Source: Escherichia coli (GTDB lineage: Bacteria; Pseudomonadota; Gammaproteobacteria; Enterobacterales; Enterobacteriaceae). Taken from it: a DNA stretch of 64,000 nucleotides. The notes below the pieces were generated by a model. The model was not told where the DNA came from. It did no database searches and saw only the letters and a program-made list of their open reading frames with translations. Positions 10,829 through 31,063 of the stretch are shown here, piece after piece. The stretch lies in assembly GCF_003334305.1 (NCBI RefSeq), contig NZ_QOWS01000006.1; one strand, 5' to 3'. Position numbers and translations under genes: made by a program. How positions within the stretch are numbered: the stretch's first letter is position 1; every line of letters starts with the position of its first letter.

Positions 10829-13258
10829 GTGTCGTCGTTGCCCGTTGCTGCCGTCTTATCTGAATTACTTACCGCTCTCGATTGTGCGCCGCAGGTATTA
10901 TTAAGTGCGCCGACCGGGGCCGGGAAATCAACCTGGCTGCCGCTGCAACTGCTGGCGCATCCCGGCATTAACGGGAAAATTATCCTGCTGGAGCCGCGTC
11001 GTCTGGCGGCGCGTAACGTCGCGCAACGGCTGGCGGAGCTGCTTAACGAAAAGCCAGGCGATACCGTTGGCTACCGGATGCGTGCGCAAAACTGCGTCGG
11101 GCCGAATACCCGCCTGGAAGTGGTTACCGAAGGCGTGCTGACGCGCATGATCCAGCGTGACCCGGAACTGAGCGGTGTTGGACTGGTGATCCTTGATGAA
11201 TTTCATGAGCGCAGCTTGCAGGCGGATTTGGCGTTGGCGCTGTTACTCGATGTGCAACAAGGTCTGCGTGATGACCTTAAACTGCTGATTATGTCGGCTA
11301 CCCTGGACAACGACCGCTTGCAGCAAATGCTGCCAGAAGCGCCTGTCGTCATCTCAGAAGGGCGCTCGTTTCCGGTTGAACGCCGTTATTTACCGCTGCC
11401 CGCGCATCAGCGTTTTGACGATGCCGTTGCGGTAGCCACCGCTGAAATGCTGCGTCAGGAAAGCGGATCATTACTGTTATTTTTACCTGGCGTCGGAGAA
11501 ATTCAGCGTGTGCAGGAACAACTGGCTTCGCGCATCGGCAGTGATGTATTGCTCTGCCCGCTGTATGGCGCGTTGTCGCTGAACGATCAGCGAAAAGCGA
11601 TCCTCCCGGCACCGCAAGGGATGCGCAAAGTGGTGCTGGCGACCAATATTGCTGAAACCAGTTTAACCATTGAAGGTATTCGTCTGGTGGTGGATTGTGC
11701 CCAGGAGCGTGTGGCGCGTTTTGATCCGCGCACGGGGCTTACGCGACTGATTACTCAACGCGTTAGCCAGGCATCCATGACGCAGCGTGCCGGGCGCGCC
11801 GGGCGTCTGGAGCCGGGTATCTGCCTGCATTTAATCGCCAAAGAACAAGCAGAACGCGCCGCGGCGCAAAGTGAACCGGAGATCTTACAAAGCGATCTTT
11901 CCGGTTTGCTGATGGAATTACTGCAATGGGGATGCAGCGATCCGGCGCAGATGAGCTGGCTGGATCAACCGCCAGTAGTGAATCTACTGGCCGCGAAACG
12001 TCTGTTACAAATGCTGGGGGCACTGGAGGGTGAACGGCTTAGTGCGCAAGGGCAAAAAATGGCAGCGCTGGGTAACGATCCGCGTTTAGCGGCAATGCTG
12101 GTTAGCGCGAAGAACGACGACGAAGCTGCTACCGCGGCAAAAATTGCCGCCATTCTCGAAGAGCCGCCACGGATGGGCAATAGTGACCTGGGCGTGGCGT
12201 TTTCGCGCAATCAACCAGCCTGGCAGCAACGTAGTCAGCAACTGTTAAAACGCTTAAACGTACGTGGCGGTGAGGCAGACAGTTCGCTTATCGCGCCGCT
12301 ACTTGCCGGGGCGTTTGCCGATCGCATTGCTCGTCGCCGTGGGCAAGATGGACGCTATCAACTGGCAAACGGCATGGGAGCGATGCTCGATGCCAACGAC
12401 GCGCTAAGCCGCCACGAATGGTTGATCGCACCGTTATTATTGCAGGGCAGCGCCTCGCCGGATGCGCGGATTTTACTGGCGCTGCCGGTCGATATTGATG
12501 AGTTAGTACAACGCTGCCCGCAGCTGGTACAGCAGTCTGACACTGTGGAGTGGGATGACGCGCAAGGTACGCTGAAAGCCTGGCGTCGGCTACAAATCGG
12601 TCAGTTGACGGTGAAAGTGCAGCCGCTGGCGAAACCGTCAGAAGACGAGTTGCATCAGGCGATGCTTAATGGCATCCGTGATAAAGGTTTAAGCGTGCTC
12701 AACTGGACGGCGGAAGCGGAACAGCTACGCTTGCGTTTGTTATGCGCCGCAAAGTGGTTGCCGGAATATGACTGGCCAGCGGTTGATGATGAAAGTTTAT
12801 TGGCGACGCTGGAAACGTGGCTGCTGCCACATATGACTGGCGTACATTCACTACGCGGCCTGAAATCACTCGACATTTATCAGGCACTACGCGGATTACT
12901 TGATTGGGGAATGCAGCAACGTCTGGATAGTGAATTGCCTGCGCATTACACTGTGCCGACGGGAAGCCGGATCGCCATTCGTTATCATGAAGATAACCCG
13001 CCCGCGCTGGCGGTGAGAATGCAAGAGATGTTTGGCGAGGCCACCAATCCGACGATCGCCCAGGGGCGCGTGCCGCTGGTGCTGGAGTTGCTTTCACCTG
13101 CCCAAAGGCCATTACAAATCACACGAGATTTGAGCGCCTTCTGGAAAGGAGCGTACCGTGAGGTGCAAAAAGAGATGAAAGGGCGTTATCCCAAACATGT
13201 CTGGCCGGACGACCCGGCAAATACTGCACCGACGCGACGGACGAAAAAGTATTCGTAA
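10829..13258 (+). CDS. hrpB: ATP-dependent RNA helicase HrpB (DEAH box)
   Basis: Track ORF 824 aa; probable GTG start at 10829 (VSSLPVAAVLSELL..., 809 aa); Walker A GAGKST and DEFH motif. Confidence 0.85.
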   Translation: MSSLPVAAVLSELLTALDCAPQVLLSAPTGAGKSTWLPLQLLAHPGINGKIILLEPRRLAARNVAQRLAELLNEKPGDTVGYRMRAQNCVGPNTRLEVVTEGVLTRMIQRDPELSGVGLVILDEFHERSLQADLALALLLDVQQGLRDDLKLLIMSATLDNDRLQQMLPEAPVVISEGRSFPVERRYLPLPAHQRFDDAVAVATAEMLRQESGSLLLFLPGVGEIQRVQEQLASRIGSDVLLCPLYGALSLNDQRKAILPAPQGMRKVVLATNIAETSLTIEGIRLVVDCAQERVARFDPRTGLTRLITQRVSQASMTQRAGRAGRLEPGICLHLIAKEQAERAAAQSEPEILQSDLSGLLMELLQWGCSDPAQMSWLDQPPVVNLLAAKRLLQMLGALEGERLSAQGQKMAALGNDPRLAAMLVSAKNDDEAATAAKIAAILEEPPRMGNSDLGVAFSRNQPAWQQRSQQLLKRLNVRGGEADSSLIAPLLAGAFADRIARRRGQDGRYQLANGMGAMLDANDALSRHEWLIAPLLLQGSASPDARILLALPVDIDELVQRCPQLVQQSDTVEWDDAQGTLKAWRRLQIGQLTVKVQPLAKPSEDELHQAMLNGIRDKGLSVLNWTAEAEQLRLRLLCAAKWLPEYDWPAVDDESLLATLETWLLPHMTGVHSLRGLKSLDIYQALRGLLDWGMQQRLDSELPAHYTVPTGSRIAIRYHEDNPPALAVRMQEMFGEATNPTIAQGRVPLVLELLSPAQRPLQITRDLSAFWKGAYREVQKEMKGRYPKHVWPDDPANTAPTRRTKKYS

Positions 13259-13267
13259 GGTTGGTTT

Positions 13268-13358
13268 TCTCCCTCTCCCTGTGGGAGAGGGCCGGGGTGA
13301 GGGCATCAGCGCGCACGTTCACCCTCACCCTAACCCTCTCCCTCAAGGGAGAGGGGAC
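13268..13358. repeat. composite GC-rich imperfect palindromic element (hairpin CCCTCTCCC/GGGAGAGGG plus GGGGTGAGGG, mirrored); REP/BoxC-like intergenic repeat, family uncertain
   Basis: Two hairpin units and inverted GGGTGAGGG/CCCTCACCC blocks read directly in the hrpB-mrcB spacer. Confidence 0.6.
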
Positions 13359-13453
13359 CGATCGAGCACAAATTTTGAGAGATATCTTCTTCTGTCTTGT
13401 AACAGAAGAACAGAAAATCGGGCTTTTGCGCCTGAATATTGCGGAGAAAAAGC

Positions 13454-15988
13454 ATGGCCGGGAATGACCGCGAGCCAATTGGACGCAAAGGGAAACCGAC
13501 GCGTCCGGTCAAACAAAAGGTAAGCCGTCGTCGTTACGAAGATGACGATGATTACGACGATTATGATGACTATGAGGATGAAGAACCGATGCCGCGCAAA
13601 GGTAAGGGCAAAGGCAAAGGGCGTAAGCCTCGTGGCAAACGCGGCTGGCTATGGCTGCTGTTAAAACTGGCTATCGTTTTTGCCGTGCTGATCGCCATTT
13701 ACGGCGTTTATCTCGATCAAAAAATTCGTAGCCGTATTGATGGCAAGGTCTGGCAACTGCCTGCGGCAGTTTATGGCCGAATGGTCAATCTTGAGCCAGA
13801 TATGACCATCAGCAAGAACGAGATGGTGAAGCTGCTGGAGGCGACTCAGTATCGTCAGGTGTCGAAAATGACCCGTCCTGGCGAATTTACCGTGCAGGCC
13901 AACAGCATTGAGATGATCCGCCGTCCGTTTGATTTCCCGGACAGTAAAGAAGGGCAGGTGCGTGCGCGTCTGACCTTTGATGGTGATCATCTGGCGACGA
14001 TCGTCAATATGGAGAACAACCGTCAGTTCGGTTTCTTCCGTCTTGATCCGCGCCTGATCACCATGATCTCTTCGCCAAACGGTGAGCAGCGTCTGTTTGT
14101 GCCGCGCAGTGGTTTCCCTGATTTGCTGGTGGATACTTTGCTGGCGACAGAAGACCGCCATTTCTACGAGCATGATGGGATCAGCCTCTACTCAATTGGG
14201 CGTGCGGTGCTGGCAAACCTGACCGCAGGTCGCACGGTGCAGGGTGCGAGTACGCTGACGCAACAGCTGGTGAAAAACCTGTTCCTCTCCAGCGAGCGCT
14301 CTTACTGGCGTAAAGCGAACGAAGCCTACATGGCGCTGATCATGGACGCGCGTTACAGCAAAGACCGTATTCTTGAGCTGTATATGAACGAGGTGTATCT
14401 CGGTCAGAGCGGCGACAACGAAATCCGCGGCTTCCCGCTGGCAAGCTTGTATTACTTTGGTCGCCCGGTAGAAGAGCTAAGCCTCGACCAGCAGGCGCTG
14501 TTAGTCGGTATGGTGAAAGGGGCGTCCATCTACAACCCGTGGCGTAACCCGAAACTGGCGCTGGAGCGACGTAATCTGGTGCTGCGTCTGCTGCAACAGC
14601 AACAGATTATTGATCAAGAACTCTATGACATGTTGAGTGCACGTCCGCTGGGGGTTCAGCCGCGCGGTGGGGTAATCTCTCCACAGCCAGCCTTTATGCA
14701 ACTGGTGCGTCAGGAGCTGCAGGCAAAACTGGGCGATAAGGTAAAAGATCTCTCCGGCGTGAAGATCTTCACTACCTTTGACTCGGTGGCCCAGGACGCG
14801 GCAGAAAAAGCCGCCGTGGAAGGCATTCCGGCACTGAAGAAACAGCGTAAGTTGAGCGATCTTGAAACTGCGATTGTGGTCGTCGACCGCTTTAGTGGTG
14901 AAGTTCGTGCGATGGTCGGAGGTTCTGAGCCGCAGTTTGCGGGCTACAACCGTGCGATGCAGGCGCGTCGTTCGATTGGTTCCCTTGCAAAACCAGCGAC
15001 TTATCTGACGGCTTTAAGCCAGCCGAAAATCTATCGCCTGAACACGTGGATTGCCGATGCGCCAATCGCGCTGCGTCAGCCGAATGGCCAGGTCTGGTCA
15101 CCGCAGAACGATGACCGTCGTTATAGCGAAAGCGGCAGAGTGATGCTGGTGGATGCGTTGACCCGTTCGATGAACGTGCCGACGGTAAATCTGGGGATGG
15201 CGCTGGGGCTGCCTGCAGTTACGGATACCTGGATCAAACTGGGCGTACCGAAAGATCAGCTGCATCCGGTTCCGGCGATGCTGCTGGGGGCGTTGAACTT
15301 AACGCCAATCGAAGTGGCGCAGGCGTTCCAGACCATCGCCAGCGGTGGTAACCGTGCACCGCTTTCTGCACTGCGTTCGGTAATCGCGGAAGATGGCAAG
15401 GTGCTGTATCAGAGCTTCCCGCAGGCAGAACGCGCTGTTCCGGCGCAGGCGGCGTATCTGACACTATGGACCATGCAGCAGGTGGTACAACGTGGTACGG
15501 GTCGTCAGCTTGGGGCGAAATACCCGAACCTGCATCTGGCAGGGAAAACAGGGACTACCAACAATAACGTAGATACCTGGTTTGCAGGCATTGACGGCAG
15601 CACGGTGACCATCACCTGGGTAGGCCGTGATAACAACCAGCCGACCAAACTGTATGGAGCCAGCGGGGCAATGTCGATTTATCAGCGTTATCTGGCTAAC
15701 CAGACGCCAACGCCGCTGAATCTTGTTCCGCCAGAAGATATTGCAGATATGGGCGTGGACTACGACGGCAACTTTGTTTGCAGCGGTGGCATGCGTGTCT
15801 TGCCGGTCTGGACCAGCGATCCGCAATCGCTGTGCCAGCAGAGCGAGATGCAGCAGCAGCCGTCAGGCAATCCGTTTGATCAGTCTTCTCAGCCGCAGCA
15901 ACAGCCGCAACAGCAACCTGCTCAGCAAGAGCAGAAAGACAGCGACGGTGTAGCCGGTTGGATCAAGGATATGTTTGGTAGTAATTAA
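13454..15988 (+). CDS. mrcB: penicillin-binding protein 1B (bifunctional glycosyltransferase/transpeptidase)
   Basis: Track ORF 849 aa; PBP1b starts [19 protein letters not shown] (844 aa) with Shine-Dalgarno GGAGA upstream; acidic/basic N-terminal tail and Q/P-rich C-terminus. Confidence 0.9.
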
Positions 15989-16004
15989 CATCTAAGCGTG
16001 AAAT

Positions 16005-16029
16005 ACCGGATGGCGAGTTGCCATCCGGT
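16005..16029 (+). terminator. stem-loop downstream of mrcB (ACCGGATGGC-GAGTT-GCCATCCGGT), no clear U-tract
   Basis: Perfect 10-bp inverted repeat read in the sequence. Confidence 0.35.
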
Positions 16030-16150
16030 AAAATAACATCCCATCTAAGATATTAACCCTTTCTTTTCATCTGGTTGTTTATTAACCCTTCAGGAACGCT
16101 CAGATTGCGTACCGCTTGCGAACCCGCCAGCGTTTCGAATATTATCTTAT

Positions 16151-16187
16151 CTTTATAATAATCATTCTCGTTTACGTTATCATTCAC
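16151..16187 (+). promoter_or_regulatory. fhuA promoter with Fur box overlapping the -10 (TATAAT at 16154-16159)
   Basis: ATAATAATCATTCTC and TTATCATTC resemble the Fur consensus GATAATGATAATCATTATC, about 25-55 bp upstream of the fhuA start. Confidence 0.6.
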
Positions 16188-16207
16188 TTTACATCAGAGA
16201 TATACCA

Positions 16208-18451
16208 ATGGCGCGTTCCAAAACTGCTCAGCCAAAACACTCACTGCGTAAAATCGCAGTTGTAGTAGCCACAGCGGTTAGCGGCATGTCTGTTTATGCA
16301 CAGGCAGCGGTTGAACCGAAAGAAGACACTATCACCGTTACCGCTGCACCTGCGCCGCAAGAAAGCGCATGGGGGCCTGCTGCAACTATTGCGGCGCGAC
16401 AGTCTGCTACCGGCACTAAAACCGATACGCCGATTCAAAAAGTGCCACAGTCTATTTCTGTTGTGACCGCCGAAGAGATGGCGCTGCATCAGCCGAAGTC
16501 GGTAAAAGAAGCGCTTAGCTACACGCCGGGTGTCTCTGTTGGTACGCGTGGCGCATCCAACACCTATGACCACCTGATCATTCGCGGCTTTGCGGCAGAA
16601 GGCCAAAGCCAGAATAACTATCTGAATGGACTGAAGTTGCAGGGCAACTTCTATAACGATGCGGTCATTGACCCGTATATGCTGGAACGCGCTGAAATTA
16701 TGCGTGGCCCGGTTTCCGTGCTTTACGGTAAAAGCAGTCCTGGCGGCCTGTTGAATATGGTCAGCAAGCGTCCGACCACCGAACCGCTGAAAGAAGTTCA
16801 GTTTAAAGCCGGTACTGACAGCCTGTTCCAGACTGGTTTTGACTTTAGCGATTCGTTGGATGATGACGGTGTTTACTCTTATCGCCTGACCGGTCTTGCG
16901 CGTTCTGCCAATGCCCAGCAGAAAGGGTCAGAAGAGCAGCGTTATGCTATTGCACCGGCGTTCACCTGGCGTCCGGATGATAAAACCAATTTTACCTTCC
17001 TTTCTTACTTCCAGAACGAGCCGGAAACCGGTTATTACGGCTGGTTGCCGAAAGAGGGAACCGTTGAGCCGCTGCCGAACGGTAAGCGTCTGCCGACAGA
17101 CTTTAATGAAGGGGCGAAGAACAACACCTATTCTCGTAATGAGAAGATGGTCGGCTACAGCTTCGATCACGAATTTAACGACACCTTTACTGTGCGTCAG
17201 AACCTGCGCTTTGCTGAAAACAAAACCTCGCAAAACAGCGTTTATGGTTACGGCGTCTGCTCCGATCCGGCGAATGCTTACAGCAAACAGTGTGCGGCAT
17301 TAGCGCCAGCGGATAAAGGCCATTATCTGGCACGTAAATACGTCGTTGATGATGAGAAGCTGCAAAACTTCTCCGTTGATACCCAGTTGCAGAGCAAGTT
17401 TGCCACTGGCGATATCGACCACACCCTGCTGACCGGTGTCGACTTTATGCGTATGCGTAATGACATCAACGCCTGGTTTGGTTACGACGACTCTGTGCCA
17501 CTGCTCAATCTGTACAATCCGGTGAATACCGATTTCGACTTCAATGCCAAAGATCCGGCAAACTCCGGCCCTTACCGCATTCTGAATAAGCAGAAACAAA
17601 CGGGCGTTTATGTTCAGGATCAGGCGCAGTGGGATAAAGTGCTGGTCACCCTGGGCGGTCGTTATGACTGGGCAGATCAAGAATCTCTTAACCGCGTTGC
17701 TGGGACGACCGATAAACGTGATGACAAACAGTTTACCTGGCGTGGTGGTGTTAACTACCTGTTTGATAATGGTGTAACACCTTACTTCAGCTATAGCGAA
17801 TCGTTTGAACCTTCTTCGCAAGTTGGGAAGGATGGTAATATTTTCGCACCGTCTAAAGGTAAGCAGTATGAAGTCGGCGTGAAATATGTACCGGAAGATC
17901 GTCCGATTGTAGTTACTGGTGCCGTGTATAATCTCACTAAAACCAACAACCTGATGGCGGACCCTGAGGGTTCCTTCTTCTCGGTTGAAGGTGGCGAGAT
18001 CCGCGCACGTGGCGTAGAAATCGAAGCGAAAGCGGCGCTGTCGGCGAGTGTTAACGTAGTCGGTTCTTATACTTACACCGATGCGGAATACACCACCGAT
18101 ACTACCTATAAAGGCAATACGCCTGCACAGGTGCCAAAACACATGGCTTCGCTGTGGGCTGACTATACCTTCTTTGACGGTCCGCTTTCAGGTCTGACGC
18201 TGGGCACCGGTGGTCGTTATACTGGCTCCAGCTATGGTGATCCGGCTAACTCCTTTAAAGTGGGAAGTTATACGGTCGTGGATGCGTTAGTGCGTTATGA
18301 TCTGGCGCGAGTCGGCATGGCGGGCTCCAACGTGGCGCTGCATGTTAACAACCTGTTCGATCGTGAATACGTCGCCAGCTGCTTTAACACTTATGGCTGC
18401 TTCTGGGGCGCAGAACGTCAGGTCGTTGCAACCGCAACCTTCCGTTTCTAA
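16208..18451 (+). CDS. fhuA: TonB-dependent ferrichrome outer-membrane transporter (receptor for phages T1, T5, phi80 and colicin M)
   Basis: 747-aa ORF with signal peptide, TonB box DTITVTA and C-terminal F (ATFRF). Confidence 0.95.
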   Translation: MARSKTAQPKHSLRKIAVVVATAVSGMSVYAQAAVEPKEDTITVTAAPAPQESAWGPAATIAARQSATGTKTDTPIQKVPQSISVVTAEEMALHQPKSVKEALSYTPGVSVGTRGASNTYDHLIIRGFAAEGQSQNNYLNGLKLQGNFYNDAVIDPYMLERAEIMRGPVSVLYGKSSPGGLLNMVSKRPTTEPLKEVQFKAGTDSLFQTGFDFSDSLDDDGVYSYRLTGLARSANAQQKGSEEQRYAIAPAFTWRPDDKTNFTFLSYFQNEPETGYYGWLPKEGTVEPLPNGKRLPTDFNEGAKNNTYSRNEKMVGYSFDHEFNDTFTVRQNLRFAENKTSQNSVYGYGVCSDPANAYSKQCAALAPADKGHYLARKYVVDDEKLQNFSVDTQLQSKFATGDIDHTLLTGVDFMRMRNDINAWFGYDDSVPLLNLYNPVNTDFDFNAKDPANSGPYRILNKQKQTGVYVQDQAQWDKVLVTLGGRYDWADQESLNRVAGTTDKRDDKQFTWRGGVNYLFDNGVTPYFSYSESFEPSSQVGKDGNIFAPSKGKQYEVGVKYVPEDRPIVVTGAVYNLTKTNNLMADPEGSFFSVEGGEIRARGVEIEAKAALSASVNVVGSYTYTDAEYTTDTTYKGNTPAQVPKHMASLWADYTFFDGPLSGLTLGTGGRYTGSSYGDPANSFKVGSYTVVDALVRYDLARVGMAGSNVALHVNNLFDREYVASCFNTYGCFWGAERQVVATATFRF

Positions 18452-18501
18452 TTTCTCTTTTGGGGCACGGATTACCGTGCCCATTTCACAAGTTGGCTGT
18501 T

Positions 18502-19299
18502 ATGCAGGAATACACGAATCATTCCGATACCACTTTTGCACTGCGTAATATCTCCTTTCGTGTGCCCGGGCGCACGCTTTTGCATCCGCTGTCGTTAACC
18601 TTTCCTGCCGGGAAAGTGACCGGTCTGATCGGTCACAACGGTTCTGGTAAATCCACTCTGCTCAAAATGCTTGGCCGTCATCAGCCTCCGACGGAAGGGG
18701 AGATTCTTCTTGATACCCAGCCGCTGGAAAGCTGGAGCAGCAAAGCGTTCGCCCGCAAAGTGGCTTATTTGCCGCAGCAGCTTCCTCCGGCAGAAGGGTT
18801 GACCGTGCGTGAACTGGTGGCGATTGGTCGTTACCCGTGGCATGGCGCGCTGGGGCGCTTTGGGGCGGCAGATCGCGAAAAAGTCGAGGAAGCTATCTCG
18901 CTGGTTGGCTTAAAACCGCTGGCGCATCGGCTGGTCGATAGTCTCTCTGGCGGCGAACGTCAACGGGCGTGGATCGCCATGCTGGTGGCGCAGGATAGCC
19001 GTTGTCTGTTGCTCGACGAACCGACTTCGGCGCTGGATATCGCCCACCAGGTTGATGTGCTGGCGCTGGTGCACCGTTTAAGTCAGGAACGTGGCCTGAC
19101 GGTCATTGCCGTGCTGCACGATATCAATATGGCGGCACGCTACTGTGATTATCTGGTCGCCCTGCGCGGTGGTGAAATGATTGCTCAGGGAACGCCTGCG
19201 GAAATTATGCGCGGCGAAACCCTCGAAATGATTTATGGCATCCCGATGGGTATTTTGCCGCATCCGGCGGGTGCTGCACCTGTGAGTTTTGTTTATTGA
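18502..19299 (+). CDS. fhuC: ferric hydroxamate ABC transporter ATP-binding protein
   Basis: Starts MQEYTNHSDTTFALRN; Walker A GHNGSGKST, ABC signature LSGGERQR; 265 aa. Confidence 0.9.
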   Translation: MQEYTNHSDTTFALRNISFRVPGRTLLHPLSLTFPAGKVTGLIGHNGSGKSTLLKMLGRHQPPTEGEILLDTQPLESWSSKAFARKVAYLPQQLPPAEGLTVRELVAIGRYPWHGALGRFGAADREKVEEAISLVGLKPLAHRLVDSLSGGERQRAWIAMLVAQDSRCLLLDEPTSALDIAHQVDVLALVHRLSQERGLTVIAVLHDINMAARYCDYLVALRGGEMIAQGTPAEIMRGETLEMIYGIPMGILPHPAGAAPVSFVY

Positions 19300-20189
19300 T
19301 GAGCGGCTTACCTCTTATTTCGCGCCGTCGACTGTTAACGGCGATGGCGCTTTCTCCGTTGTTATGGCAGATGAATACCGCCCACGCGGCGGCTATTGAC
19401 CCCAATCGTATTGTGGCGCTGGAGTGGTTGCCGGTGGAATTACTGCTGGCGCTCGGCATCGTGCCTTACGGCGTGGCGGATACCATCAACTATCGCCTGT
19501 GGGTCAGCGAACCACCATTGCCGGACTCAGTGATTGACGTCGGTTTGCGTACAGAACCTAACCTTGAACTGCTGACCGAAATGAAACCGTCGTTTATGGT
19601 CTGGTCGGCAGGATATGGCCCTTCATCAGAAATGCTGGCACGTATTGCGCCGGGTCGCGGATTTAACTTCAGTGACGGCAAACAGCCGTTGGCGATGGCG
19701 CGTAAATCGCTGACGGAAATGGCAGATTTACTTAACCTGCAAAGCGCAGCGGAAACGCATTTAGCGCAATACGAAGACTTTATCCGCAGCATGAAACCCC
19801 GCTTTGTGAAGCGTGGTGCACGCCCGTTACTGCTGACGACGCTTATCGATCCGCGCCATATGCTGGTCTTCGGTCCAAACAGCTTGTTCCAGGAAATTCT
19901 CGATGAGTACGGCATCCCAAATGCCTGGCAAGGGGAAACCAACTTCTGGGGCAGTACCGCCGTCAGTATCGATCGTCTGGCGGCGTATAAAGACGTTGAT
20001 GTGCTCTGTTTTGATCACGACAACAGCAAAGACATGGATGCGCTAATGGCAACCCCGCTGTGGCAGGCCATGCCGTTTGTCCGCGCCGGACGCTTTCAGC
20101 GCGTACCCGCAGTCTGGTTTTATGGTGCGACGCTCTCGGCAATGCACTTTGTGCGCGTTCTGGATAACGCCATCGGAGGTAAAGCGTGA
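19299..20189 (+). CDS. fhuD: ferric hydroxamate periplasmic binding protein
   Basis: ATG overlaps the fhuC stop (ATGA); 296 aa, signal peptide MSGLPLISRRRLLTAMALSPLLWQMNTAHA. Confidence 0.9.
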   Translation: MSGLPLISRRRLLTAMALSPLLWQMNTAHAAAIDPNRIVALEWLPVELLLALGIVPYGVADTINYRLWVSEPPLPDSVIDVGLRTEPNLELLTEMKPSFMVWSAGYGPSSEMLARIAPGRGFNFSDGKQPLAMARKSLTEMADLLNLQSAAETHLAQYEDFIRSMKPRFVKRGARPLLLTTLIDPRHMLVFGPNSLFQEILDEYGIPNAWQGETNFWGSTAVSIDRLAAYKDVDVLCFDHDNSKDMDALMATPLWQAMPFVRAGRFQRVPAVWFYGATLSAMHFVRVLDNAIGGKA

Positions 20190-22168
20190 GTAAACGAATT
20201 GCGCTTTTTCCGGCGTTATTGCTGGCGCTGCTGGTGATTGTCGCTACGGCGCTGACCTGGATGAACTTTTCGCAGGCGCTGCCGCGCAGTCAGTGGGCGC
20301 AGGCCGCCTGGTCGCCGGATATTAACGTCATCGAGCAGATGATTTTTCACTACAGCTTGTTACCACGTCTGGCGATTTCTCTACTGGTGGGCGCGGGCCT
20401 GGGGCTGGTGGGCGTGCTGTTTCAGCAAGTGCTGCGTAACCCGCTGGCGGAACCGACGACGTTGGGCGTTGCTACAGGCGCGCAACTGGGGATTACCGTC
20501 ACCACGCTCTGGGCGATCCCCGGTGCTATGGCGAGCCAGTTTGCCGCGCTGGTGGGCGCTTGTGTCGTTGGCTTAATCGTCTTTGGCGTCGCGTGGGGGA
20601 AACGGCTTTCGCCGGTTACGCTTATTCTCGCGGGGCTGGTGGTGAGCCTTTATTGCGGGGCAATTAATCAGCTACTGGTTATCTTCCATCACGACCAGCT
20701 GCAAAGCATGTTCCTGTGGAGCACCGGAACGCTGACGCAAACCGACTGGGGCGGCGTTGAGCGTTTATGGCCGCAGCTGCTGGGCGGCGTGATGCTGACG
20801 TTACTGCTACTTCGTCCGTTAACCCTGATGGGGCTTGATGATGGCGTGGCGCGCAATCTCGGGCTGGCCTTATCGCTCGCGCGTCTGGCTGCGCTGTCGC
20901 TGGCGATAGTCATCAGTGCGCTGCTGGTGAATGCGGTGGGGATTATCGGCTTTATCGGGTTGTTCGCGCCACTGCTGGCAAAAATGCTGGGGGCGCGGCG
21001 TTTGTTGCCACGGTTGATGCTGGCGTCGCTGATTGGTGCGTTAATTCTGTGGCTTTCTGATCAAATCATCCTCTGGCTGACTCGCGTGTGGATGGAAGTG
21101 TCCACCGGTTCGGTCACTGCGTTGATCGGTGCGCCGCTGCTACTGTGGCTGCTGCCGCGTTTACGGAGCATTAGCGCGCCGGATATGAAGGTCAACGATC
21201 GTGTCGCGACTGAACGCCAACATGTGCTGGCGTTTGTCCTCGCGGGCGGCGTGCTGCTGTTGATGGCTGTGGTAGTGGCGCTGTCGTTTGGTCGTGATGC
21301 GCACGGCTGGACGTGGGCGAGCGGGGCGTTGCTTGAGGATTTGATGCCCTGGCGCTGGCCGCGAATTATGGCGGCGCTGTTTGCGGGCGTCATGCTGGCG
21401 GTGGCGGGCTGTATTATTCAGCGGCTGACCGGAAACCCGATGGCAAGCCCGGAAGTGCTGGGGATTAGCTCTGGCGCAGCGTTTGGCGTGGTGTTGATGC
21501 TGTTTCTGGTGCCGGGTAATGCCTTTGGCTGGCTGTTACCTGCAGGCAGTCTCGGGGCGGCGGTGACGCTGTTGATCATTATGATCGCCGCCGGACGCGG
21601 TGGATTTTCCCCACACCGCATGTTACTGGCGGGGATGGCGTTAAGTACCGCGTTCACCATGCTTTTGATGATGTTGCAGGCAAGTGGTGACCCGCGAATG
21701 GCGCAAGTGCTGACCTGGATTTCCGGTTCGACCTACAACGCGACCGATGCGCAGGTCTGGCGCACCGGAATTGTGATGGTGATTTTGCTGGCGATTACCC
21801 CGCTGTGCCGCCGCTGGCTGACCATTTTACCGCTGGGTGGTGATACCGCCCGAGCCGTAGGAATGGCGCTAACGCCGACGCGAATTGCGCTGCTGCTGTT
21901 AGCGGCTTGCCTGACGGCGACCGCGACGATGACTATTGGACCGTTGAGTTTTGTTGGTTTAATGGCACCGCATATTGCGCGGATGATGGGCTTTCGACGG
22001 ACGATGCCGCACATCGTAATTTCGGCGCTGGTGGGTGGTTTACTGCTGGTGTTCGCTGACTGGTGTGGGCGGATGGTGCTGTTTCCATTCCAGATCCCGG
22101 CGGGGCTGCTGTCAACCTTTATCGGCGCGCCATATTTTATCTATTTGTTGAGAAAGCAGAGCCGTTAA
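20186..22168 (+). CDS. fhuB: ferric hydroxamate ABC transporter permease (fused double permease)
   Basis: 660-aa highly hydrophobic ORF overlapping the fhuD stop. Confidence 0.9.
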   Translation: MSKRIALFPALLLALLVIVATALTWMNFSQALPRSQWAQAAWSPDINVIEQMIFHYSLLPRLAISLLVGAGLGLVGVLFQQVLRNPLAEPTTLGVATGAQLGITVTTLWAIPGAMASQFAALVGACVVGLIVFGVAWGKRLSPVTLILAGLVVSLYCGAINQLLVIFHHDQLQSMFLWSTGTLTQTDWGGVERLWPQLLGGVMLTLLLLRPLTLMGLDDGVARNLGLALSLARLAALSLAIVISALLVNAVGIIGFIGLFAPLLAKMLGARRLLPRLMLASLIGALILWLSDQIILWLTRVWMEVSTGSVTALIGAPLLLWLLPRLRSISAPDMKVNDRVATERQHVLAFVLAGGVLLLMAVVVALSFGRDAHGWTWASGALLEDLMPWRWPRIMAALFAGVMLAVAGCIIQRLTGNPMASPEVLGISSGAAFGVVLMLFLVPGNAFGWLLPAGSLGAAVTLLIIMIAAGRGGFSPHRMLLAGMALSTAFTMLLMMLQASGDPRMAQVLTWISGSTYNATDAQVWRTGIVMVILLAITPLCRRWLTILPLGGDTARAVGMALTPTRIALLLLAACLTATATMTIGPLSFVGLMAPHIARMMGFRRTMPHIVISALVGGLLLVFADWCGRMVLFPFQIPAGLLSTFIGAPYFIYLLRKQSR

Positions 22169-22174
22169 TTGAAT

Positions 22175-22195
22175 GCCTCGCCCGGTGGGCGAGGC
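22175..22195. terminator. convergent stem-loop between fhuB and hemL (GCCTCGCCC-GGTG-GGCGAGGC)
   Basis: Inverted repeat in the 34-bp spacer between the convergent fhuB and hemL stops. Confidence 0.45.
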
Positions 22196-22202
22196 AAAAT
22201 CA

Positions 22203-23483
22203 TCACAACTTCGCAAACACCCGACGTGCAGCATCGATGGTGTTATTGATATCTTCCATGCTGTGCGCCACGGACATAAAGCCCGCTTCAAACGCTGATG
22301 GTGCCAGGTAAACACCTTCATCCAGCATCATATGGAAGAAACGCTTAAAGCGTTCCACGTCACAGGCCATCACATCCTGATAGCACGTCACGGACTCGGC
22401 GTCGGTAAAGAAAATACCGAACATGCCGCCAACGTGGTTAACGACCAGCGGAATTCCGGCTTCTTCTGCCGCTTCCAGCAGACCTTCTGCCAGACGTGTT
22501 GTCAGCTCATCCAGCGTTTCGTGAACGCCCGGCTGCGCGACTTCATTCAGACAGGCGAAACCCGCTGCCATCGCAATTGGGTTACCGGAAAGCGTACCCG
22601 CCTGATAGACCGGACCCGTCGGGGCCAGCGCATCCATTACATCACGACGACCACCGAATGCGCCTACCGGCATTCCACCGCCGATGATTTTGCCCAGGCA
22701 GGTGAGATCCGGTTCCACACCGTAATAATCCTGTGCGCCAGCTAGCGCTACGCGGAAGCCAGTCATTACTTCATCGATGATCAGCAATGCGCCAAATTCG
22801 TCGCACAGCGCGCGCAGACCTGGCAGGAACTCTGGCAGCGGTGGAACGCAGTTCATATTGCCTGCCACCGGCTCGACGATAATACAGGCAATCTCTTGCG
22901 GGTATTGCTCAAACGCGGCGCGTACAGAAGCCAGATCGTTATAAGTACAGGTTAAGGTATGTTTGGCGAAATCTGCCGGAACACCCGGCGAGTTTGGCTG
23001 GCCTAACGTGAGTGCGCCAGAACCGGCTTTCACCAGCAGGCAGTCAGCGTGACCGTGGTAACAACCTTCAAATTTAATGATTTTGTCGCGACCGGTAAAA
23101 CCACGGGCCAGGCGGATGGCGCTCATCGTCGCTTCAGTGCCGGAGTTCACCATGCGCACCATATCCATGGTCGGGACCAGTTCGGTCACCAGTTGCGCCA
23201 TTTTCACTTCCATTTCGGTCGGTGCACCAAAGCTTAAACCACGCTCGGCGGCTTCAATCACGGCATTGCGGATAGCCGGATGGTTATGGCCCAGCACCAT
23301 CGGCCCCCAGGAACCGACATAATCGATATAGGCTTTGCCATCAACATCGTACAGATAAGCGCCGTCCGCTTTTTCGATAAACAGTGGAGTGCCGCCCACG
23401 CCAGTAAAGGCGCGAACAGGGGAGTTCACACCGCCAGGGATCAGCTCGCGCGCTGCGCTGTAAAGATTTTCAGACTTACTCAT
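22203..23483 (-). CDS. hemL: glutamate-1-semialdehyde 2,1-aminomutase
   Basis: 426-aa [29 protein letters not shown]... recognised as HemL. Confidence 0.9.
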
Positions 23484-23689
23484 GGAGGGTTCCTGATTCG
23501 TAGAAAAAGTGAATGGCTGCTATTCTATGTTATTCATAACAAGTTAAATACTCGTCAAACATCAGGCTGCTTGTACTGGTGCAATCCTGATTTCTTAGAG
23601 TATAAAAGTTTTGTGCATTTGAAACATTACGCTTTGCAAAGGATTTTCATGGAACGTGCGAGTAAAATGCCGTCATCTTATTTGTATGA

Positions 23690-25129
<1,440 letters not shown>

Positions 25130-25210
25130 ACGAAATACCAGGGTATTAGATAATGGCGATTATTATTGGGTTAGAATTTGCCCAATTGCCGATGTCGTTT
25201 GGAGCAAAAT

Positions 25211-25555
25211 ATGAGTGATGACGTAGCACTGCCGCTGGAGTTTACCGACGCAGCAGCCAACAAAGTTAAAAGCCTGATCGCTGACGAAGATAACCCGAAT
25301 CTGAAATTACGCGTGTATATCACCGGTGGCGGTTGCAGCGGCTTCCAGTATGGTTTCACCTTTGATGATCAGGTGAACGAAGGCGATATGACCATCGAAA
25401 AACAGGGCGTTGGCCTGGTGGTTGATCCGATGAGCCTGCAATATCTGGTCGGCGGTTCCGTTGACTATACCGAAGGACTGGAAGGTTCTCGTTTCATCGT
25501 GACCAACCCGAACGCGAAAAGCACCTGCGGTTGCGGTTCTTCCTTTAGCATCTAA
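25211..25555 (+). CDS. erpA: iron-sulfur cluster insertion protein (A-type carrier)
   Basis: Track ORF over-extended; real start [11 protein letters not shown] at 25211 with Shine-Dalgarno GGAG; C-terminal CGCGSSF motif; 114 aa. Confidence 0.9.
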
Positions 25556-25565
25556 TCTGTTGTTC

Positions 25566-25592
25566 ATGTGCCGGATAAACTATCCGGCACAT
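25566..25592. terminator. bidirectional stem-loop between erpA and yadS (ATGTGCCGGATA-AAC-TATCCGGCACAT)
   Basis: Perfect 12-bp inverted repeat between convergent genes. Confidence 0.5.
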
Positions 25593-25601
25593 CTTCTCTC
25601 T

Positions 25602-26225
25602 TCAACGCCCATTCTCATCCAGCGCAAACGTCGGTAGCTTAAGATGCCAACGAATAGCCGCCAGCCGAATCAAGAGCGTCACGACCATGCCCATCATACT
25701 GGCTGTTTCCAGTGGTACGGAAAATGTGTAATAAGCCGTAGCGTGGACAATACCGCCGATAATACAGGCAGTTGCGTAGATTTCTGTACGTAAAATCATG
25801 GGGATTTCGCGGGCCAGAACATCACGAATGATCCCGCCGCCAACGCCAGTAATGACGCCCATACAAACCGCGATTAACGGACCGGCTTCCGCATTAAAGG
25901 CTTTATTCACGCCAATGCCGACAAACACCGCCAGACCAACGGCGTCCAGCACCGGCAACATCCATTTTGGTAAGCGTCTTGGCTGGCGCACCAGCACGAT
26001 GGTCAGCATGCTGGTTACCATTGCAACGACCAGATCGGTGGGATCTTTCACCCAAAATACCGGGCCGTGATCCAGCGCCATGTCGCGAATTGTCCCGCCG
26101 CCTACAGCGGTAACCACGCCCAGTACCAGAACACCAAAAGGGTCCATACGCAATTTTCCGGCTAACAAAACGCCGGAGATGGCAAATACCGCTGTGCCGA
26201 CTATATCCAGCCAATAGACGAGCAT
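25602..26225 (-). CDS. yadS: UPF0126 family inner membrane protein
   Basis: 207-aa hydrophobic ORF with duplicated GGGxIRD motifs. Confidence 0.8.
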   Translation of the reverse strand: MLVYWLDIVGTAVFAISGVLLAGKLRMDPFGVLVLGVVTAVGGGTIRDMALDHGPVFWVKDPTDLVVAMVTSMLTIVLVRQPRRLPKWMLPVLDAVGLAVFVGIGVNKAFNAEAGPLIAVCMGVITGVGGGIIRDVLAREIPMILRTEIYATACIIGGIVHATAYYTFSVPLETASMMGMVVTLLIRLAAIRWHLKLPTFALDENGR

Positions 26226-26262
26226 TGTTCAATCCCCACTGAGCACCTGAAAAGGTCAGGCA

Positions 26263-27063
26263 CTAATCTACCTGTGAAAGCGCATTACAGAGCTGTTGTG
26301 CAGCGAGGATAATACGTGGGCTTGCACGTTCAAACCAGTCACTCGTGAGAGGAATAACGGGAATTTTGAGCTGTTCACCCCAGTATTGTTTGATTTTAGG
26401 AATTTGGTCCGGTCCGCCTGTAATGACAATCGCCTGTGGCGAGCGTGCTAACACCTGTTCGCGGCTAACTTGCGGCCAGGGAACCCGGCTGTCTTTAAAG
26501 ATGTTTTCTCCGCCACAAACTTCGAGTACCTGGTTCTGAATCGACTCTTTTCCACTGGTAAATGGCGGATTAATGCCGAATTGCAGAAAAACACGTTTTT
26601 TAGGTTTATCAGCATATTGCGCTTTCAATTGCGCGTACTGATCCAGCAGGGATTGCGCGGCTTGTTCGGCCTTGTCTGGTTGCGGACTCCAGGGGGCCAG
26701 TTGACGTAACGCATTGGCAATTTGTTCAATGCTTGTCGCATCGACCCACATCACTTTTATTCCCAGCGAAGCCAGCTGGTCAACCTGCCGCTCGGCATTA
26801 CCTCCACGCCAGGCAATCACCAGATCGGGTTTCAGCGCGACAATGCGTTCCAGATTCATCCCCTGCCAGGTGGAAACCTGCTCAATCTTTTGCGCTTGTG
26901 GAGGATAGTCGGAATAGCTGCTGACCCCAACCGGCGTGATCCCGGCGGCAAAGGCAAGTTCAGTGTTGGCGGGAGAAAGCGTGATGACGCGCGGCGCGGC
27001 GTTGAGCCACAGTGGCGCAAGAAAAGACAGGGCGACCAGCGCCCTGAACAGTGACTTAGCCAT
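26263..27063 (-). CDS. btuF: vitamin B12 periplasmic binding protein
   Basis: Track ORF 275 aa; BtuF starts [22 protein letters not shown] (266 aa); its start overlaps the mtn 3' end by 8 nt. Confidence 0.85.
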
Positions 27064-27754
27064 GTGCAAGTTTCTGCACCAGTGACTCAACCATCAGGCT
27101 GGACTGTTTAGCGGCAACAGCCAGGAACTCATCGAAGCTAAGATGAGACTGTTGATCGGCCACGTCGGAGATGGCGCGTACGACAACAAACGGGACGTTG
27201 AAATTGTGGCAGACATGGGCGATTGCCGTCGCTTCCATCTCTACAGCAATGGCCTGTGGGAAGTTGTGGCGGATTTTCGCCAGACCAACAGAACCGTTGA
27301 TGAAAGCGTCGCCGCTAACAATCAGGCCACGTACAGCGTTAAGATTCAGTTCGGCAATGCAGGCCTCAGCGGCAGCGATCAGTTTATCGTCAGCTTTAAA
27401 GCCTGCCGGACAGCCTGGTAACTGACCGTATTCATAACCAAATGCCGTGACATCCGCGTCGTGATAACGTGCTTCGTCCGAGACAACGATATCGCCCACT
27501 TTCAGCGTTGGTGCCAGGCCACCGGCAGAACCGGTGTTAATAATCACATCTGGCTTGCAGTGTTCCAACAGCAGAGTGGCACCCAGCGCCGCAGCGACTT
27601 TACCGATGCCCGATTTCAGAAGCGCAACCTCGGTTCCATTCAGTTGGCCGGTATAGATTTCGCAACCGCCGAGACTGATAGTTTGACGGTTTTCGATTTT
27701 GTCACGCAGCAGCGTAACTTCTTCTTCCATTGCACCAATGATGCCGATTTTCAT
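27056..27754 (-). CDS. mtnN: 5'-methylthioadenosine/S-adenosylhomocysteine nucleosidase
   Basis: 232-aa [23 protein letters not shown]... recognised as Mtn/Pfs. Confidence 0.9.
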
Positions 27755-27837
27755 AGATTTACTCGCGATAAGCCCGATTTGAAGGCATAGTTTACCATGC
27801 GCTTACGGGGAAGCGTATTTCTCACGCGGGAGAGGAC

Positions 27838-29355
27838 ATGGCACAGATTGATTTCCGAAAAAAAATAAACTGGCATCGTCGTTACCGTTCACCGCAGGGC
27901 GTTAAAACCGAACATGAGATCCTGCGGATCTTCGAGAGCGATCGCGGGCGTATCATCAACTCTCCGGCAATTCGTCGTCTGCAACAAAAGACCCAGGTTT
28001 TTCCACTGGAGCGCAATGCCGCCGTGCGCACGCGTCTTACTCACTCGATGGAAGTCCAGCAGGTGGGGCGCTACATCGCCAAAGAAATTTTAAGCCGTCT
28101 GAAAGAGCTTAAATTGCTGGAAGCATACGGCCTGGATGAACTGACCGGACCTTTTGAAAGCATTGTTGAGATGTCATGCCTGATGCACGATATCGGCAAT
28201 CCGCCGTTTGGTCATTTTGGCGAAGCAGCGATAAATGACTGGTTTCGCCAACGTTTGCACCCGGAAGATGCCGAAAGCCAGCCTCTGACTGACGATCGCT
28301 GCAGCGTGGCGGCACTACGTTTACGGGACGGGGAAGAACCGCTTAACGAGCTGCGGCGCAAGATTCGTCAGGACTTATGTCATTTTGAGGGGAATGCACA
28401 AGGCATTCGTCTGGTGCATACATTGATGCGGATGAATCTCACCTGGGCACAGGTTGGCGGTATTTTAAAATATACCCGTCCGGCGTGGTGGCGTGGCGAA
28501 ACGCCTGAGACACATCACTATTTAATGAAAAAGCCGGGTTATTATCTTTCTGAAGAAGCCTATATTGCCCGGTTGCGTAAAGAACTTAATTTGGCGCTTT
28601 ACAGTCGTTTTCCATTAACGTGGATTATGGAAGCTGCCGACGACATCTCCTATTGTGTGGCAGACCTTGAAGATGCGGTAGAGAAAAGAATATTTACCGT
28701 TGAGCAGCTTTATCATCATTTGCACGAAGCGTGGGGCCAGCATGAGAAAGGTTCGCTCTTTTCGCTGGTGGTTGAAAATGCCTGGGAAAAATCACGCTCA
28801 AATAGTTTAAGCCGCAGTACGGAAGATCAGTTTTTTATGTATTTACGAGTAAATACCCTAAATAAACTGGTACCCTATGCGGCACAACGATTTATTGATA
28901 ATCTGCCTGCGATTTTCGCCGGAACGTTTAATCATGCATTATTGGAAGATGCCAGCGAATGCAGCGATCTTCTTAAGCTATATAAAAATGTCGCTGTAAA
29001 ACATGTGTTTAGCCATCCAGATGTCGAGCAGCTTGAATTGCAGGGCTATCGGGTCATTAGCGGATTATTAGAGATTTATCGTCCTTTATTAAGCCTGTCG
29101 TTATCAGACTTTACTGAACTGGTAGAAAAAGAACGGGTGAAACGTTTCCCTATTGAATCGCGCTTATTCCACAAACTCTCGACGCGCCATCGGCTGGCCT
29201 ATGTCGAGGCTGTCAGTAAATTACCGTCAGATTCTCCTGAGTTTCCGCTATGGGAATATTATTACCGTTGCCGCCTGCTGCAGGATTATATCAGCGGTAT
29301 GACCGACCTCTATGCGTGGGATGAATACCGACGTCTGATGGCCGTAGAACAATAA
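27838..29355 (+). CDS. dgt: dGTP triphosphohydrolase
   Basis: 505-aa ORF with HD-domain motifs ([16 protein letters not shown]). Confidence 0.9.
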
Positions 29356-29411
29356 CCAGGCTTTTGTAAAGACGAACAATAAATTTTTACCTTTTGCAGA
29401 AACTTTAGTTC

Positions 29412-29439
29412 GGAACTTCGCGCTATAAAACGAATCTGA
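29412..29439 (+). promoter_or_regulatory. sigmaE-type promoter of degP (-35 GGAACTT, 16-nt spacer, -10 TCTGA)
   Basis: GGAACTT at 29412-29418 and TCTGA at 29435-29439 read in the sequence, about 45 nt upstream of the degP ATG; a GTAAA-containing candidate CpxR site lies just upstream at about 29366. Confidence 0.7.
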
Positions 29440-29484
29440 AGAACACAGCAATTTTGCGTTATCTGTTAATCGAGACTGAAATAC

Positions 29485-30909
29485 ATGAAAAAAACCACAT
29501 TAGCACTGAGTGCACTGGCTCTGAGTTTAGGTTTGGCGTTATCTCCGCTCTCTGCAACGGCGGCTGAGACTTCTTCAGCAACGACAGCCCAGCAGATGCC
29601 AAGCCTTGCACCGATGCTCGAAAAGGTGATGCCTTCAGTGGTCAGCATTAACGTAGAAGGTAGCACAACCGTTAATACGCCGCGTATGCCGCGTAATTTC
29701 CAGCAGTTCTTCGGTGATGATTCTCCGTTCTGCCAGGAAGGTTCTCCGTTCCAGAGCTCTCCGTTCTGCCAGGGTGGCCAGGGCGGTAATGGTGGCGGCC
29801 AGCAACAGAAATTCATGGCGCTGGGTTCCGGCGTCATCATTGATGCCGATAAAGGCTATGTCGTCACCAACAACCACGTTGTTGATAACGCGACGGTCAT
29901 TAAAGTTCAACTGAGCGATGGCCGTAAGTTCGACGCGAAGATGGTTGGCAAAGATCCGCGCTCTGATATCGCGCTGATCCAAATCCAGAACCCGAAAAAC
30001 CTGACCGCAATTAAGATGGCGGATTCTGATGCACTGCGCGTGGGTGATTACACCGTAGCGATTGGTAACCCGTTTGGTCTGGGCGAGACGGTAACTTCCG
30101 GGATTGTCTCTGCGCTGGGGCGTAGCGGCCTGAATGCCGAAAACTACGAAAACTTCATCCAGACCGATGCAGCGATCAACCGTGGTAACTCCGGTGGTGC
30201 GCTGGTTAACCTGAACGGTGAACTGATCGGTATCAACACCGCGATCCTCGCACCGGACGGCGGCAACATCGGTATCGGTTTTGCTATCCCGAGCAACATG
30301 GTGAAAAACCTGACCTCGCAGATGGTGGAATACGGCCAGGTGAAACGCGGTGAGCTGGGTATTATGGGGACTGAGCTGAACTCCGAACTGGCCAAAGCGA
30401 TGAAAGTTGACGCCCAGCGCGGTGCTTTCGTAAGCCAGGTTCTGCCTAATTCCTCCGCTGCAAAAGCGGGCATTAAAGCGGGTGATGTGATCACCTCACT
30501 GAACGGTAAGCCGATCAGCAGCTTTGCCGCACTGCGTGCTCAGGTGGGTACTATGCCGGTGGGCAGTAAACTGACCCTGGGCTTACTGCGCGACGGTAAG
30601 CAGGTTAACGTGAACCTGGAACTGCAGCAGAGCAGCCAGAATCAGGTTGATTCCAGCTCCATCTTCAACGGCATTGAAGGCGCTGAGATGAGCAACAAAG
30701 GCAAAGATCAGGGCGTGGTAGTGAACAACGTGAAAACGGGCACTCCGGCTGCGCAGATCGGCCTGAAGAAAGGTGATGTGATTATTGGCGCGAACCAGCA
30801 GGCAGTGAAAAACATCGCTGAACTGCGTAAAGTTCTCGACAGCAAACCGTCTGTGCTGGCACTGAACATTCAGCGCGGCGACAGCACCATCTACCTGTTA
30901 ATGCAGTAA
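29485..30909 (+). CDS. degP: periplasmic serine endoprotease/chaperone DegP (HtrA)
   Basis: 474-aa ORF with signal peptide, catalytic GNSGGAL motif and two PDZ regions. Confidence 0.95.
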   Translation: MKKTTLALSALALSLGLALSPLSATAAETSSATTAQQMPSLAPMLEKVMPSVVSINVEGSTTVNTPRMPRNFQQFFGDDSPFCQEGSPFQSSPFCQGGQGGNGGGQQQKFMALGSGVIIDADKGYVVTNNHVVDNATVIKVQLSDGRKFDAKMVGKDPRSDIALIQIQNPKNLTAIKMADSDALRVGDYTVAIGNPFGLGETVTSGIVSALGRSGLNAENYENFIQTDAAINRGNSGGALVNLNGELIGINTAILAPDGGNIGIGFAIPSNMVKNLTSQMVEYGQVKRGELGIMGTELNSELAKAMKVDAQRGAFVSQVLPNSSAAKAGIKAGDVITSLNGKPISSFAALRAQVGTMPVGSKLTLGLLRDGKQVNVNLELQQSSQNQVDSSSIFNGIEGAEMSNKGKDQGVVVNNVKTGTPAAQIGLKKGDVIIGANQQAVKNIAELRKVLDSKPSVLALNIQRGDSTIYLLMQ

Positions 30910-30917
30910 TCTCCCTC

Positions 30918-30950
30918 AACCCCTTCCTGAAAACGGGAAGGGGTTCTCCT
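30918..30950 (+). terminator. stem-loop terminator after degP (AACCCCTTCC-TGAAAACG-GGAAGGGGTT)
   Basis: 10-bp perfect inverted repeat 9 nt after the stop codon. Confidence 0.6.
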
Positions 30951-31063
30951 TACAATCTGTGAACTTCACCACAACTCCATACATCTTCATCATCCTTTAG
31001 GCATTTGCACAATGCCGTACGTTACGTACTTCCTTATGCTAAGCCGTGCATAACGGAGGACTT

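Follow-up and report, generated by a model that had tools for sequence, protein, structure and literature searches.

A Fur operator just downstream of the transcription start of the Escherichia coli fhuACDB operon, and a TATAAT hexamer within it that is probably not the -10 element

The 219-bp gap between mrcB (ending at position 15988) and the fhuA start codon (ATG at 16208) very likely carries the usual promoter, repressed by Fur, of the ferrichrome-uptake operon fhuACDB, with a -35 element TTGCGA, a -10 element TATTAT, a transcription start at about position 16152 and a Fur operator that extends from +3 to +21 relative to that start. All positions are those of the analyzed window, a stretch of 64,000 nucleotides of E. 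coli DNA (NCBI RefSeq assembly GCF_003334305.1, contig NZ_QOWS01000006.1). A perfect TATAAT hexamer in the same operator is probably a decoy, i.e., an arm of the Fur operator that happens to lie in the first 21 transcribed bases, in which case the promoter held in databases is misplaced by 14 bp and Fur acts downstream of the -10 element.

The fhuA coding sequence occupies positions 16208 to 18451 of the plus strand and, judged by its open reading frame and translation, encodes an intact protein of 747 aa. This uninterrupted frame is followed on the same strand by fhuC, fhuD and fhuB (18502 to 22168), all of which are full length according to their open reading frames and to the annotation of strain A7 and of K-12, and the genetic context is thus that of the fhuACDB operon. 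The intergenic gap was found to be identical at 219 of 219 positions to the interval 167265-167483 of E. coli K-12 MG1655 by sequence comparison, and coordinates can be converted by subtracting 151276 from those of MG1655. Consequently, the regulatory region is the same, and precedes the same operon, as the K-12 fhuACDB promoter that was studied by Chen et al. (2007; PMC2189734) and by Shultzaberger et al. (2007; PMC1807945). The window strain differs from K-12 by nine synonymous substitutions in fhuA and by a shorter fhuB-hemL spacer (22169-22202), which measures 34 bp in the window versus 157 bp in K-12 MG1655, the latter thus containing approximately 123 additional bases. The strain is not K-12: over 20 kb around fhuA, the window is 100% identical to isolates from the wild, e.g., A7 and NCTC9088.

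Several further features of this neighbourhood were observed. Nineteen base pairs past the mrcB stop codon lies an inverted repeat at 16007-16029 (CCGGATGGC-gagt-GCCATCCGG) that lacks a T run and is absent from the output of the terminator scan; it presumably represents the mrcB 3' hairpin. Many E. coli genomes (e.g., those of M22546, WL297 and DCE7) carry an operon for a fimbrial usher and a fimbrial protein between mrcB and fhuA, and in these strains the sequence becomes similar to the window again at the -35 element or slightly upstream of it, with a nearly identical promoter and leader. The length of FhuA ranges from 731 to 752 aa among M22546, WL297, DCE7 and CUVET18-565, the last of which is without the fimbrial insert. 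The minus-strand htrE gene (1543-4143), specifying the usher of the Yad fimbria, has a frame that stops at 1654, 37 codons short of 1543, the annotated end. Strain A7 and the window agree at 100% over positions 12000-32000, and the annotation of A7 treats htrE as a pseudogene that contains an internal stop.

The primary Fur operator, TATAATAATCATTCTCGTT, is located at 16154-16172 and constitutes a 19-bp inverted repeat of 9-1-9 architecture with its centre at 16163, which places it 45 bp upstream of fhuA (from site centre to ATG). The classical 19-mer Fur consensus, GATAATGATAATCATTATC, returned no match with three or fewer mismatches anywhere in the window, and its best fit in the promoter (14 of 19 positions, at 16151-16169) was equalled at seven other window positions. 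Since this consensus proved indecisive, an independent weight matrix was employed instead, i.e., a symmetric 19-bp log-odds matrix derived from 16 footprinted or gel-shifted K-12 sites from which fhuA was excluded; the site coordinates were those that Chen et al. (2007; PMC2189734) give in their Table 4, and the centres were set by the published distance to the gene start. The sequence at 16154-16172 was the top match of the entire 64-kb window with a score of 20.6 bits, which lies within the range obtained for the proven sites when each was left out of the matrix in turn (16.8-29.3 bits, with a median of 22.1). Approximately 0.004 matches of this strength are expected per 64 kb under a model of independent bases, while among 200 first-order Markov simulations the maximum attained 20.6 bits in 1.5%. 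An earlier note, made from the sequence alone, had recognized a Fur-box-like sequence at fhuA and had proposed weight-matrix scoring as a check; the site scores above background, is the best of the window and corresponds to a gel-shifted site in K-12. The only other positive score in the fhuA promoter belongs to a weak secondary site of 3.9 bits at 16148-16166 (-4 to +15), 6 bp upstream of the primary one.

The second-best match to the Fur matrix in the window, ATTGAGAATCATTCTGAAT at 37469-37487, is a near-perfect palindrome that scores 17.7 bits, with about 0.02 such matches expected per 64 kb. It lies between map and rpsB, 75-93 bp ahead of the start of map (37394, minus strand), the product of which is a metal-dependent methionine aminopeptidase.

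Published data on the identical K-12 sequence are in agreement with this assignment. Chen et al. (2007; PMC2189734) listed a gel-shifted fhuA Fur cluster at K-12 position 167439, with a score of 19.5 bits and with three walkers, i.e., individual predicted sites, distributed over 31 bp; the listed position corresponds exactly to the site centre at 16163. The K-12 site therefore occupies the same place, centred 45 bp upstream of the ATG, and was given 19.5 bits by those authors as compared to 20.6 bits here. Shultzaberger et al. (2007; PMC1807945) described two gel-shifted fhuA Fur sites of 10.7 and 19.5 bits, and we infer that the exact position of the 10.7-bit site in that paper is that of the weak site at 16148-16166. 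Furthermore, a fusion of the fhuA promoter to lacZ in K-12 was shown to be repressed by Fur in vivo (Beauchene 2015). A Fur footprint for fhuA was not found in the literature, and a paper on a 'PfhuA' expression vector (PMC3621691) was set aside because it concerns a promoter of Vibrio cholerae.

Loci containing fhuA were collected from one genome per species, yielding 78 loci from the Enterobacteriaceae plus Hafnia and Ewingella whose FhuA proteins share 58-99% identity. Of these, 77 had an upstream region that could be scanned with the Fur matrix over the 220 nt preceding the gene, and in 72 the ATG was located exactly. The best Fur match was found at the homologous place in 77 of the 77 scanned loci, being centred between -43 and -49 from the ATG in the 72 exactly located ones, with a nearly invariant core that reads (C/T)ATAATAAT(A/C)ATT(C/A)TCGTT. 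A chance AT-rich resemblance devoid of any regulatory role, for which it may be said that the plain consensus is matched at just 14 of 19 positions and equally well at seven other places, is extremely improbable when set against the chance expectation for a 20.6-bit score, the conserved position in every locus scanned, and the gel shift and Fur-dependent repression published for the identical sequence. The presence of a genuine Fur operator in the fhuA promoter region is thus supported.

The position of this operator relative to the promoter depends on where transcription starts. Cappable-seq of MG1655 grown in M9-glucose detected one strong plus-strand start, at K-12 position 167428 (relative read score 31.4), with minor starts at 167477 (1.96) and 167494 (4.1), while in SMRT-Cappable-seq of K-12 this start (0-based coordinate 167427) was represented by 506 reads, and transcripts covering fhuA, fhuAC and fhuACD originate from it. 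The coordinate convention was verified on the starts of mrcB and hrpB. When transferred to the window, this start is position 16152, where the base is a T; purines are more common at transcription starts. The hexamer TATTAT (16140-16145), which matches the -10 consensus at five of six positions, ends 7 nt before the mapped start, and is paired in the promoter scan with TTGCGA (16116-16121) across an 18-bp spacer, yielding 9 of 12 matches overall; TTGCGA matches TTGACA at four of six positions at the 18-bp spacing only. TATTAT thus has the hexamer, the -35 partner and, from the K-12 data, the start 7 nt downstream that characterize a sigma-70 -10 element, and the strong start at 16152 implies that TATTAT, together with TTGCGA, is the -10 in use. 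Relative to this K-12-derived start, the Fur core covers +3 to +21 and the weak site -4 to +15.

Independent data from a different laboratory point in the same direction. Kim et al. (2012) reported a Klebsiella pneumoniae fhuA start located 55 nt upstream of the ATG, which lies behind the same CTTGCC...CGTTTCG..TATTAT arrangement; the E. coli fhuA start is absent from that study, where the Klebsiella fhuA start and an internal fhuC start are given. Internal fhuC starts were indeed seen in two independent data sets, i.e., that of Kim et al. (2012), with 191 reads, and SMRT-Cappable-seq: starts at K-12 169124 (window 17848) and 169214 fall within the fhuA coding sequence and are assigned to fhuC, and the sequence ahead of the start ends in GGTAATATTTTCGC. 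Between fhuA and fhuC, a hairpin (GGGCACGG-atta-CCGTGCCC) that has no long T run occupies 18463-18482, and SMRT-Cappable-seq transcript 3' ends were reported at K-12 169763 (approximately window position 18487), just past it. The location of these 3' ends directly after the hairpin indicates that part of the transcription terminates past fhuA.

The earlier note had also stated that the Fur box overlaps the fhuA -10 element, which it took to be TATAAT. This hexamer is present, at 16154-16159 and within the Fur site, matches the -10 consensus at six of six positions and lies at +3 to +8 from the mapped start; the overlap between Fur site and TATAAT accordingly stands, while the designation of TATAAT as the -10 is not supported, given the start at 16152. 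The designation is that of a prediction by Huerta and Collado-Vides (2003) which was reused by Jo et al. (2019). The fhuA numbering of the latter study, whose stated source is the computational prediction of 2003, puts TTACGTTATCATTCA at +7 to +21; as this sequence is found at 16172-16186 in the window, the numbering implies a start at 16166 with TATAAT as the -10. A promoter of this kind, in which Fur and sigma-70 would compete for one and the same hexamer and transcription would commence at about 16166, is improbable. Its perfect consensus, its adoption by Jo et al. (2019) and the frequent overlap of Fur boxes with -35 or -10 elements (Chen et al. 2007; PMC2189734) speak in its favour, yet it originates from a computational prediction, and neither Cappable-seq nor SMRT-Cappable-seq lists any start between K-12 positions 167430 and 167469. 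In both data sets TATAAT has no mapped start 5-9 nt downstream, and the strong start falls 2 nt upstream of it. Moreover, the best -35 partner of TATAAT matches zero to three of six positions at spacers of 15-19 bp (zero to two at 16-18 bp), the hexamer lacks a TG extension, and no promoter based on it was reported by the promoter scan, while the Klebsiella start maps behind TATTAT. TATAAT resembles a -10 because it forms one of the GATAAT-type arms of the Fur site. The start maps were obtained with K-12 in M9 or rich medium, as opposed to a fur mutant or strong iron chelation, and a second start from TATAAT may arise upon full derepression only.

A different promoter was proposed by Shultzaberger et al. 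(2007; PMC1807945), who assigned 7.3 bits to a promoter with a -10 located 29 bases upstream of fhuA, i.e., TATCAT at 16178-16183, such that both Fur sites would cover its -35 and spacer region. Despite a match at five of six consensus positions and retention in 67 of 73 aligned species, this proposal is highly unlikely to be correct, being a prediction only: no start was detected near 16189-16192, the nearest being the minor one at 167477 (window 16201), 18 nt past the hexamer; the candidate -35 elements match at one to three of six positions; and the conserved block that encloses TATCAT is identical to a footprint of the regulator HypT (see below). Neither of the published predictions, that of Huerta and Collado-Vides as used by Jo et al. 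or that of Shultzaberger et al., is backed by the two capped-5'-end data sets, and a predicted promoter that lies 14 bp off the mapped start is still in circulation.

Sequence conservation across the 73 aligned species is consistent with TTGCGA and TATTAT as the promoter in use. TATTAT is kept in 62 of the 73 species and TTGCNA at the -35 position in 67, with CTTGC being at least 95% conserved. The hexamer at 16154-16159, in contrast, reads CATAAT in 53 species and TATAAT in 15, so that in most of them the first base required of a consensus -10 is a C; the conserved part, ATAAT, is also required by the Fur site. Variation is seen in the segment 16146-16153 and upstream of the -35 element. In 59 of 77 loci, 23 bp separate the -10 from the Fur centre, although the intervening bases differ. 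The sequence CCAGCGTTTCG at 16126-16136 lies inside the spacer between the -35 and -10 elements, and the GTTTCG within it shows conservation of at least 95% among the 73 species. The sequence of a promoter spacer is normally free to vary.

Downstream of the mapped start, positions 16155-16187 are at least 95% conserved among the 73 species with the exception of 16163 (90-95%), 16167 (70-80%) and 16174 (90-95%), the first two of which are located inside the Fur core. An RNA element was considered as a reason for the conservation of the leader and was ruled out, since the 56-nt fhuA leader folds no better than shuffled sequence (z +0.66) and returned no Rfam match at E-values up to 1; the conservation is therefore better explained by DNA that binds protein.

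The 3' half of this block, TTACGTTATCATTCA at 16172-16186, is identical over 15 bp to the proximal DNase I footprint of HypT (YjiE) at the fhuA operator of Salmonella (Jo et al. 2019), and it is at least 95% conserved across the 73 species save for position 16174 (90-95%). On the strength of this identity, 16172-16186 probably represents the proximal site of HypT, the hypochlorite regulator. A distal candidate, AACCCTTTCTTTTCA at 16055-16069, carries one mismatch relative to the distal Salmonella footprint, and is 30-80% conserved per column among the 73 species, with one column at 95% or above. The binding described by Jo et al. (2019) concerns the Salmonella protein and Salmonella DNA, the E. 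coli site being recognized here by its sequence, and the numbering used in that study counts from the predicted start, which lies 14 bp further downstream than the mapped start. An 11-bp direct repeat, TATTAACCCTT, precedes the fhuA -35 element, occurring at 16051-16061 and again at 16080-16090, 29 bp apart; its first copy overlaps the distal HypT-like sequence, and the region is partly conserved across genera.

It is conceivable, if rather unlikely, that the entire segment from 16151 to 16187 constitutes a single extended Fur operator occupied by three or more dimers, its 3' half being conserved for Fur as opposed to HypT. Chen et al. (2007; PMC2189734) found three walkers over 31 bp and noted that Fur extends along DNA at high concentration, and the successive hexamers ATTCTC, GTTTAC, GTTATC and ATTCAC, in 6-bp phase, match the reverse Fur hexamer ATWAT at 4, 2, 4 and 3 of 5 positions, respectively. 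The 19-mers centred from 16164 to 16194, however, all score below zero on the Fur matrix, and the 3' half corresponds exactly to the sequence protected by HypT in Salmonella. A second Fur site within 16172-16187 was rejected on account of these uniformly negative scores and was retained solely as the low-probability alternative just described. Under the preferred interpretation, in which TATAAT is an operator arm, the Fur site and the adjoining HypT site may together make up 33 bp that hardly vary across the Enterobacteriaceae.

The arrangement of the operator can be compared with that of other Fur-regulated promoters. The classical Fur boxes of aerobactin iucA, fepA-fes and fhuF likewise precede iron-uptake genes and are 19-bp 9-1-9 inverted repeats built from GATAAT-like arms, with neighbouring sites that overlap at an offset of 6 bp, but they cover the -35 or the -10 element, whereas the fhuA core is situated at +3 to +21, downstream of the -10. 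Clusters between promoter and start codon have also been described, e.g., those of fecA, fepD-entS and yddA (Chen et al. 2007; PMC2189734).

Based on these data, the following mechanism may be proposed. Sigma-70 RNA polymerase would recognize TTGCGA (16116-16121) and TATTAT (16140-16145) and initiate at about 16152, producing an unstructured leader of 56 nt. When iron is plentiful, a dimer of Fe2+-Fur would occupy the 19-bp inverted repeat TATAATAATCATTCTCGTT from +3 to +21, and a second dimer would probably bind more weakly 6 bp upstream, from -4 to +15. Fur would thereby be placed within the DNA that the polymerase needs for opening and leaving the promoter, so that transcription would be blocked, presumably by occlusion or by trapping at +3 to +21. 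When iron is scarce, Fur would depart and FhuA would be made.

The receptor encoded by this operon is without alteration. The FhuA protein is identical to that of K-12 (NP_414692.1) at 747 of 747 residues, the gene containing nine synonymous base differences, and it matches the NCBIfam equivalog NF007465 ('ferrichrome porin FhuA') with 1473 bits against a cut-off of 803, over residues 1-747. Its mature form of 714 residues is 100% identical to PDB chains 1BY3, 8A8C and 8A60. The FhuA of the window is therefore the known TonB-dependent transporter of ferrichrome, which also serves as a phage receptor (PDB 1BY3, 2FCP, 8A8C, 8A60), with no differences in the protein. The full-length fhuA of 747 aa that the earlier note had described is thereby borne out: the frame from 16208 to 18451 has no frameshift, and alignment with K-12 revealed neither the frameshift nor the deletion that the note had named as evidence against it. 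Its further claim that the strain retains the receptor of T1, T5 and phi80 holds at the level of sequence, the protein being identical to the K-12 receptor. Sensitivity to these phages has further determinants, i.e., TonB in the case of T1 and phi80, and surface shielding. The entries 8A8C, 8A60 and 8B14 are presumably complexes of FhuA with the receptor-binding protein of phage T5.

Among 5426 complete E. coli genomes, 3119 possess a fhuA allele that is at least 99% identical at the DNA level, while 1066 have alleles of 80-90% and 563 of 60-80% identity. As some 30% of the genomes thus carry alleles of 60-90% identity, the allele of the window is the common K-12-type one. In the laboratory strain ET12567 fhuA is interrupted by an IS1 element, which is the type of tonA lesion that the earlier note had in mind when contrasting the strain with laboratory derivatives. 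For strain typing, the window thus represents a wild-type strain with an uninterrupted fhuA allele of the common K-12 type, and the sequence identities suggest that it would behave like K-12 at fhuA.

The import of these results is limited in that no aspect of the Fur operator of fhuA or of the FhuA protein is new: it is textbook knowledge that Fur controls fhuA and that FhuA serves as the receptor of phages, colicins and antibiotics, and the window carries an exact copy of the K-12 regulatory sequence. The public 5'-end data for fhuA, in contrast, disagree with the predicted promoter in use. With regard to annotation, the presence of a perfect TATAAT within a Fur box does not justify calling it a -10 element unless a start has been mapped, since the arms of Fur sites (GATAAT) resemble -10 elements by their very nature. 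If TATAAT is indeed an operator arm, then Fur would repress fhuA by blocking open-complex formation or promoter escape, and would not compete with RNA polymerase for the -10 element.
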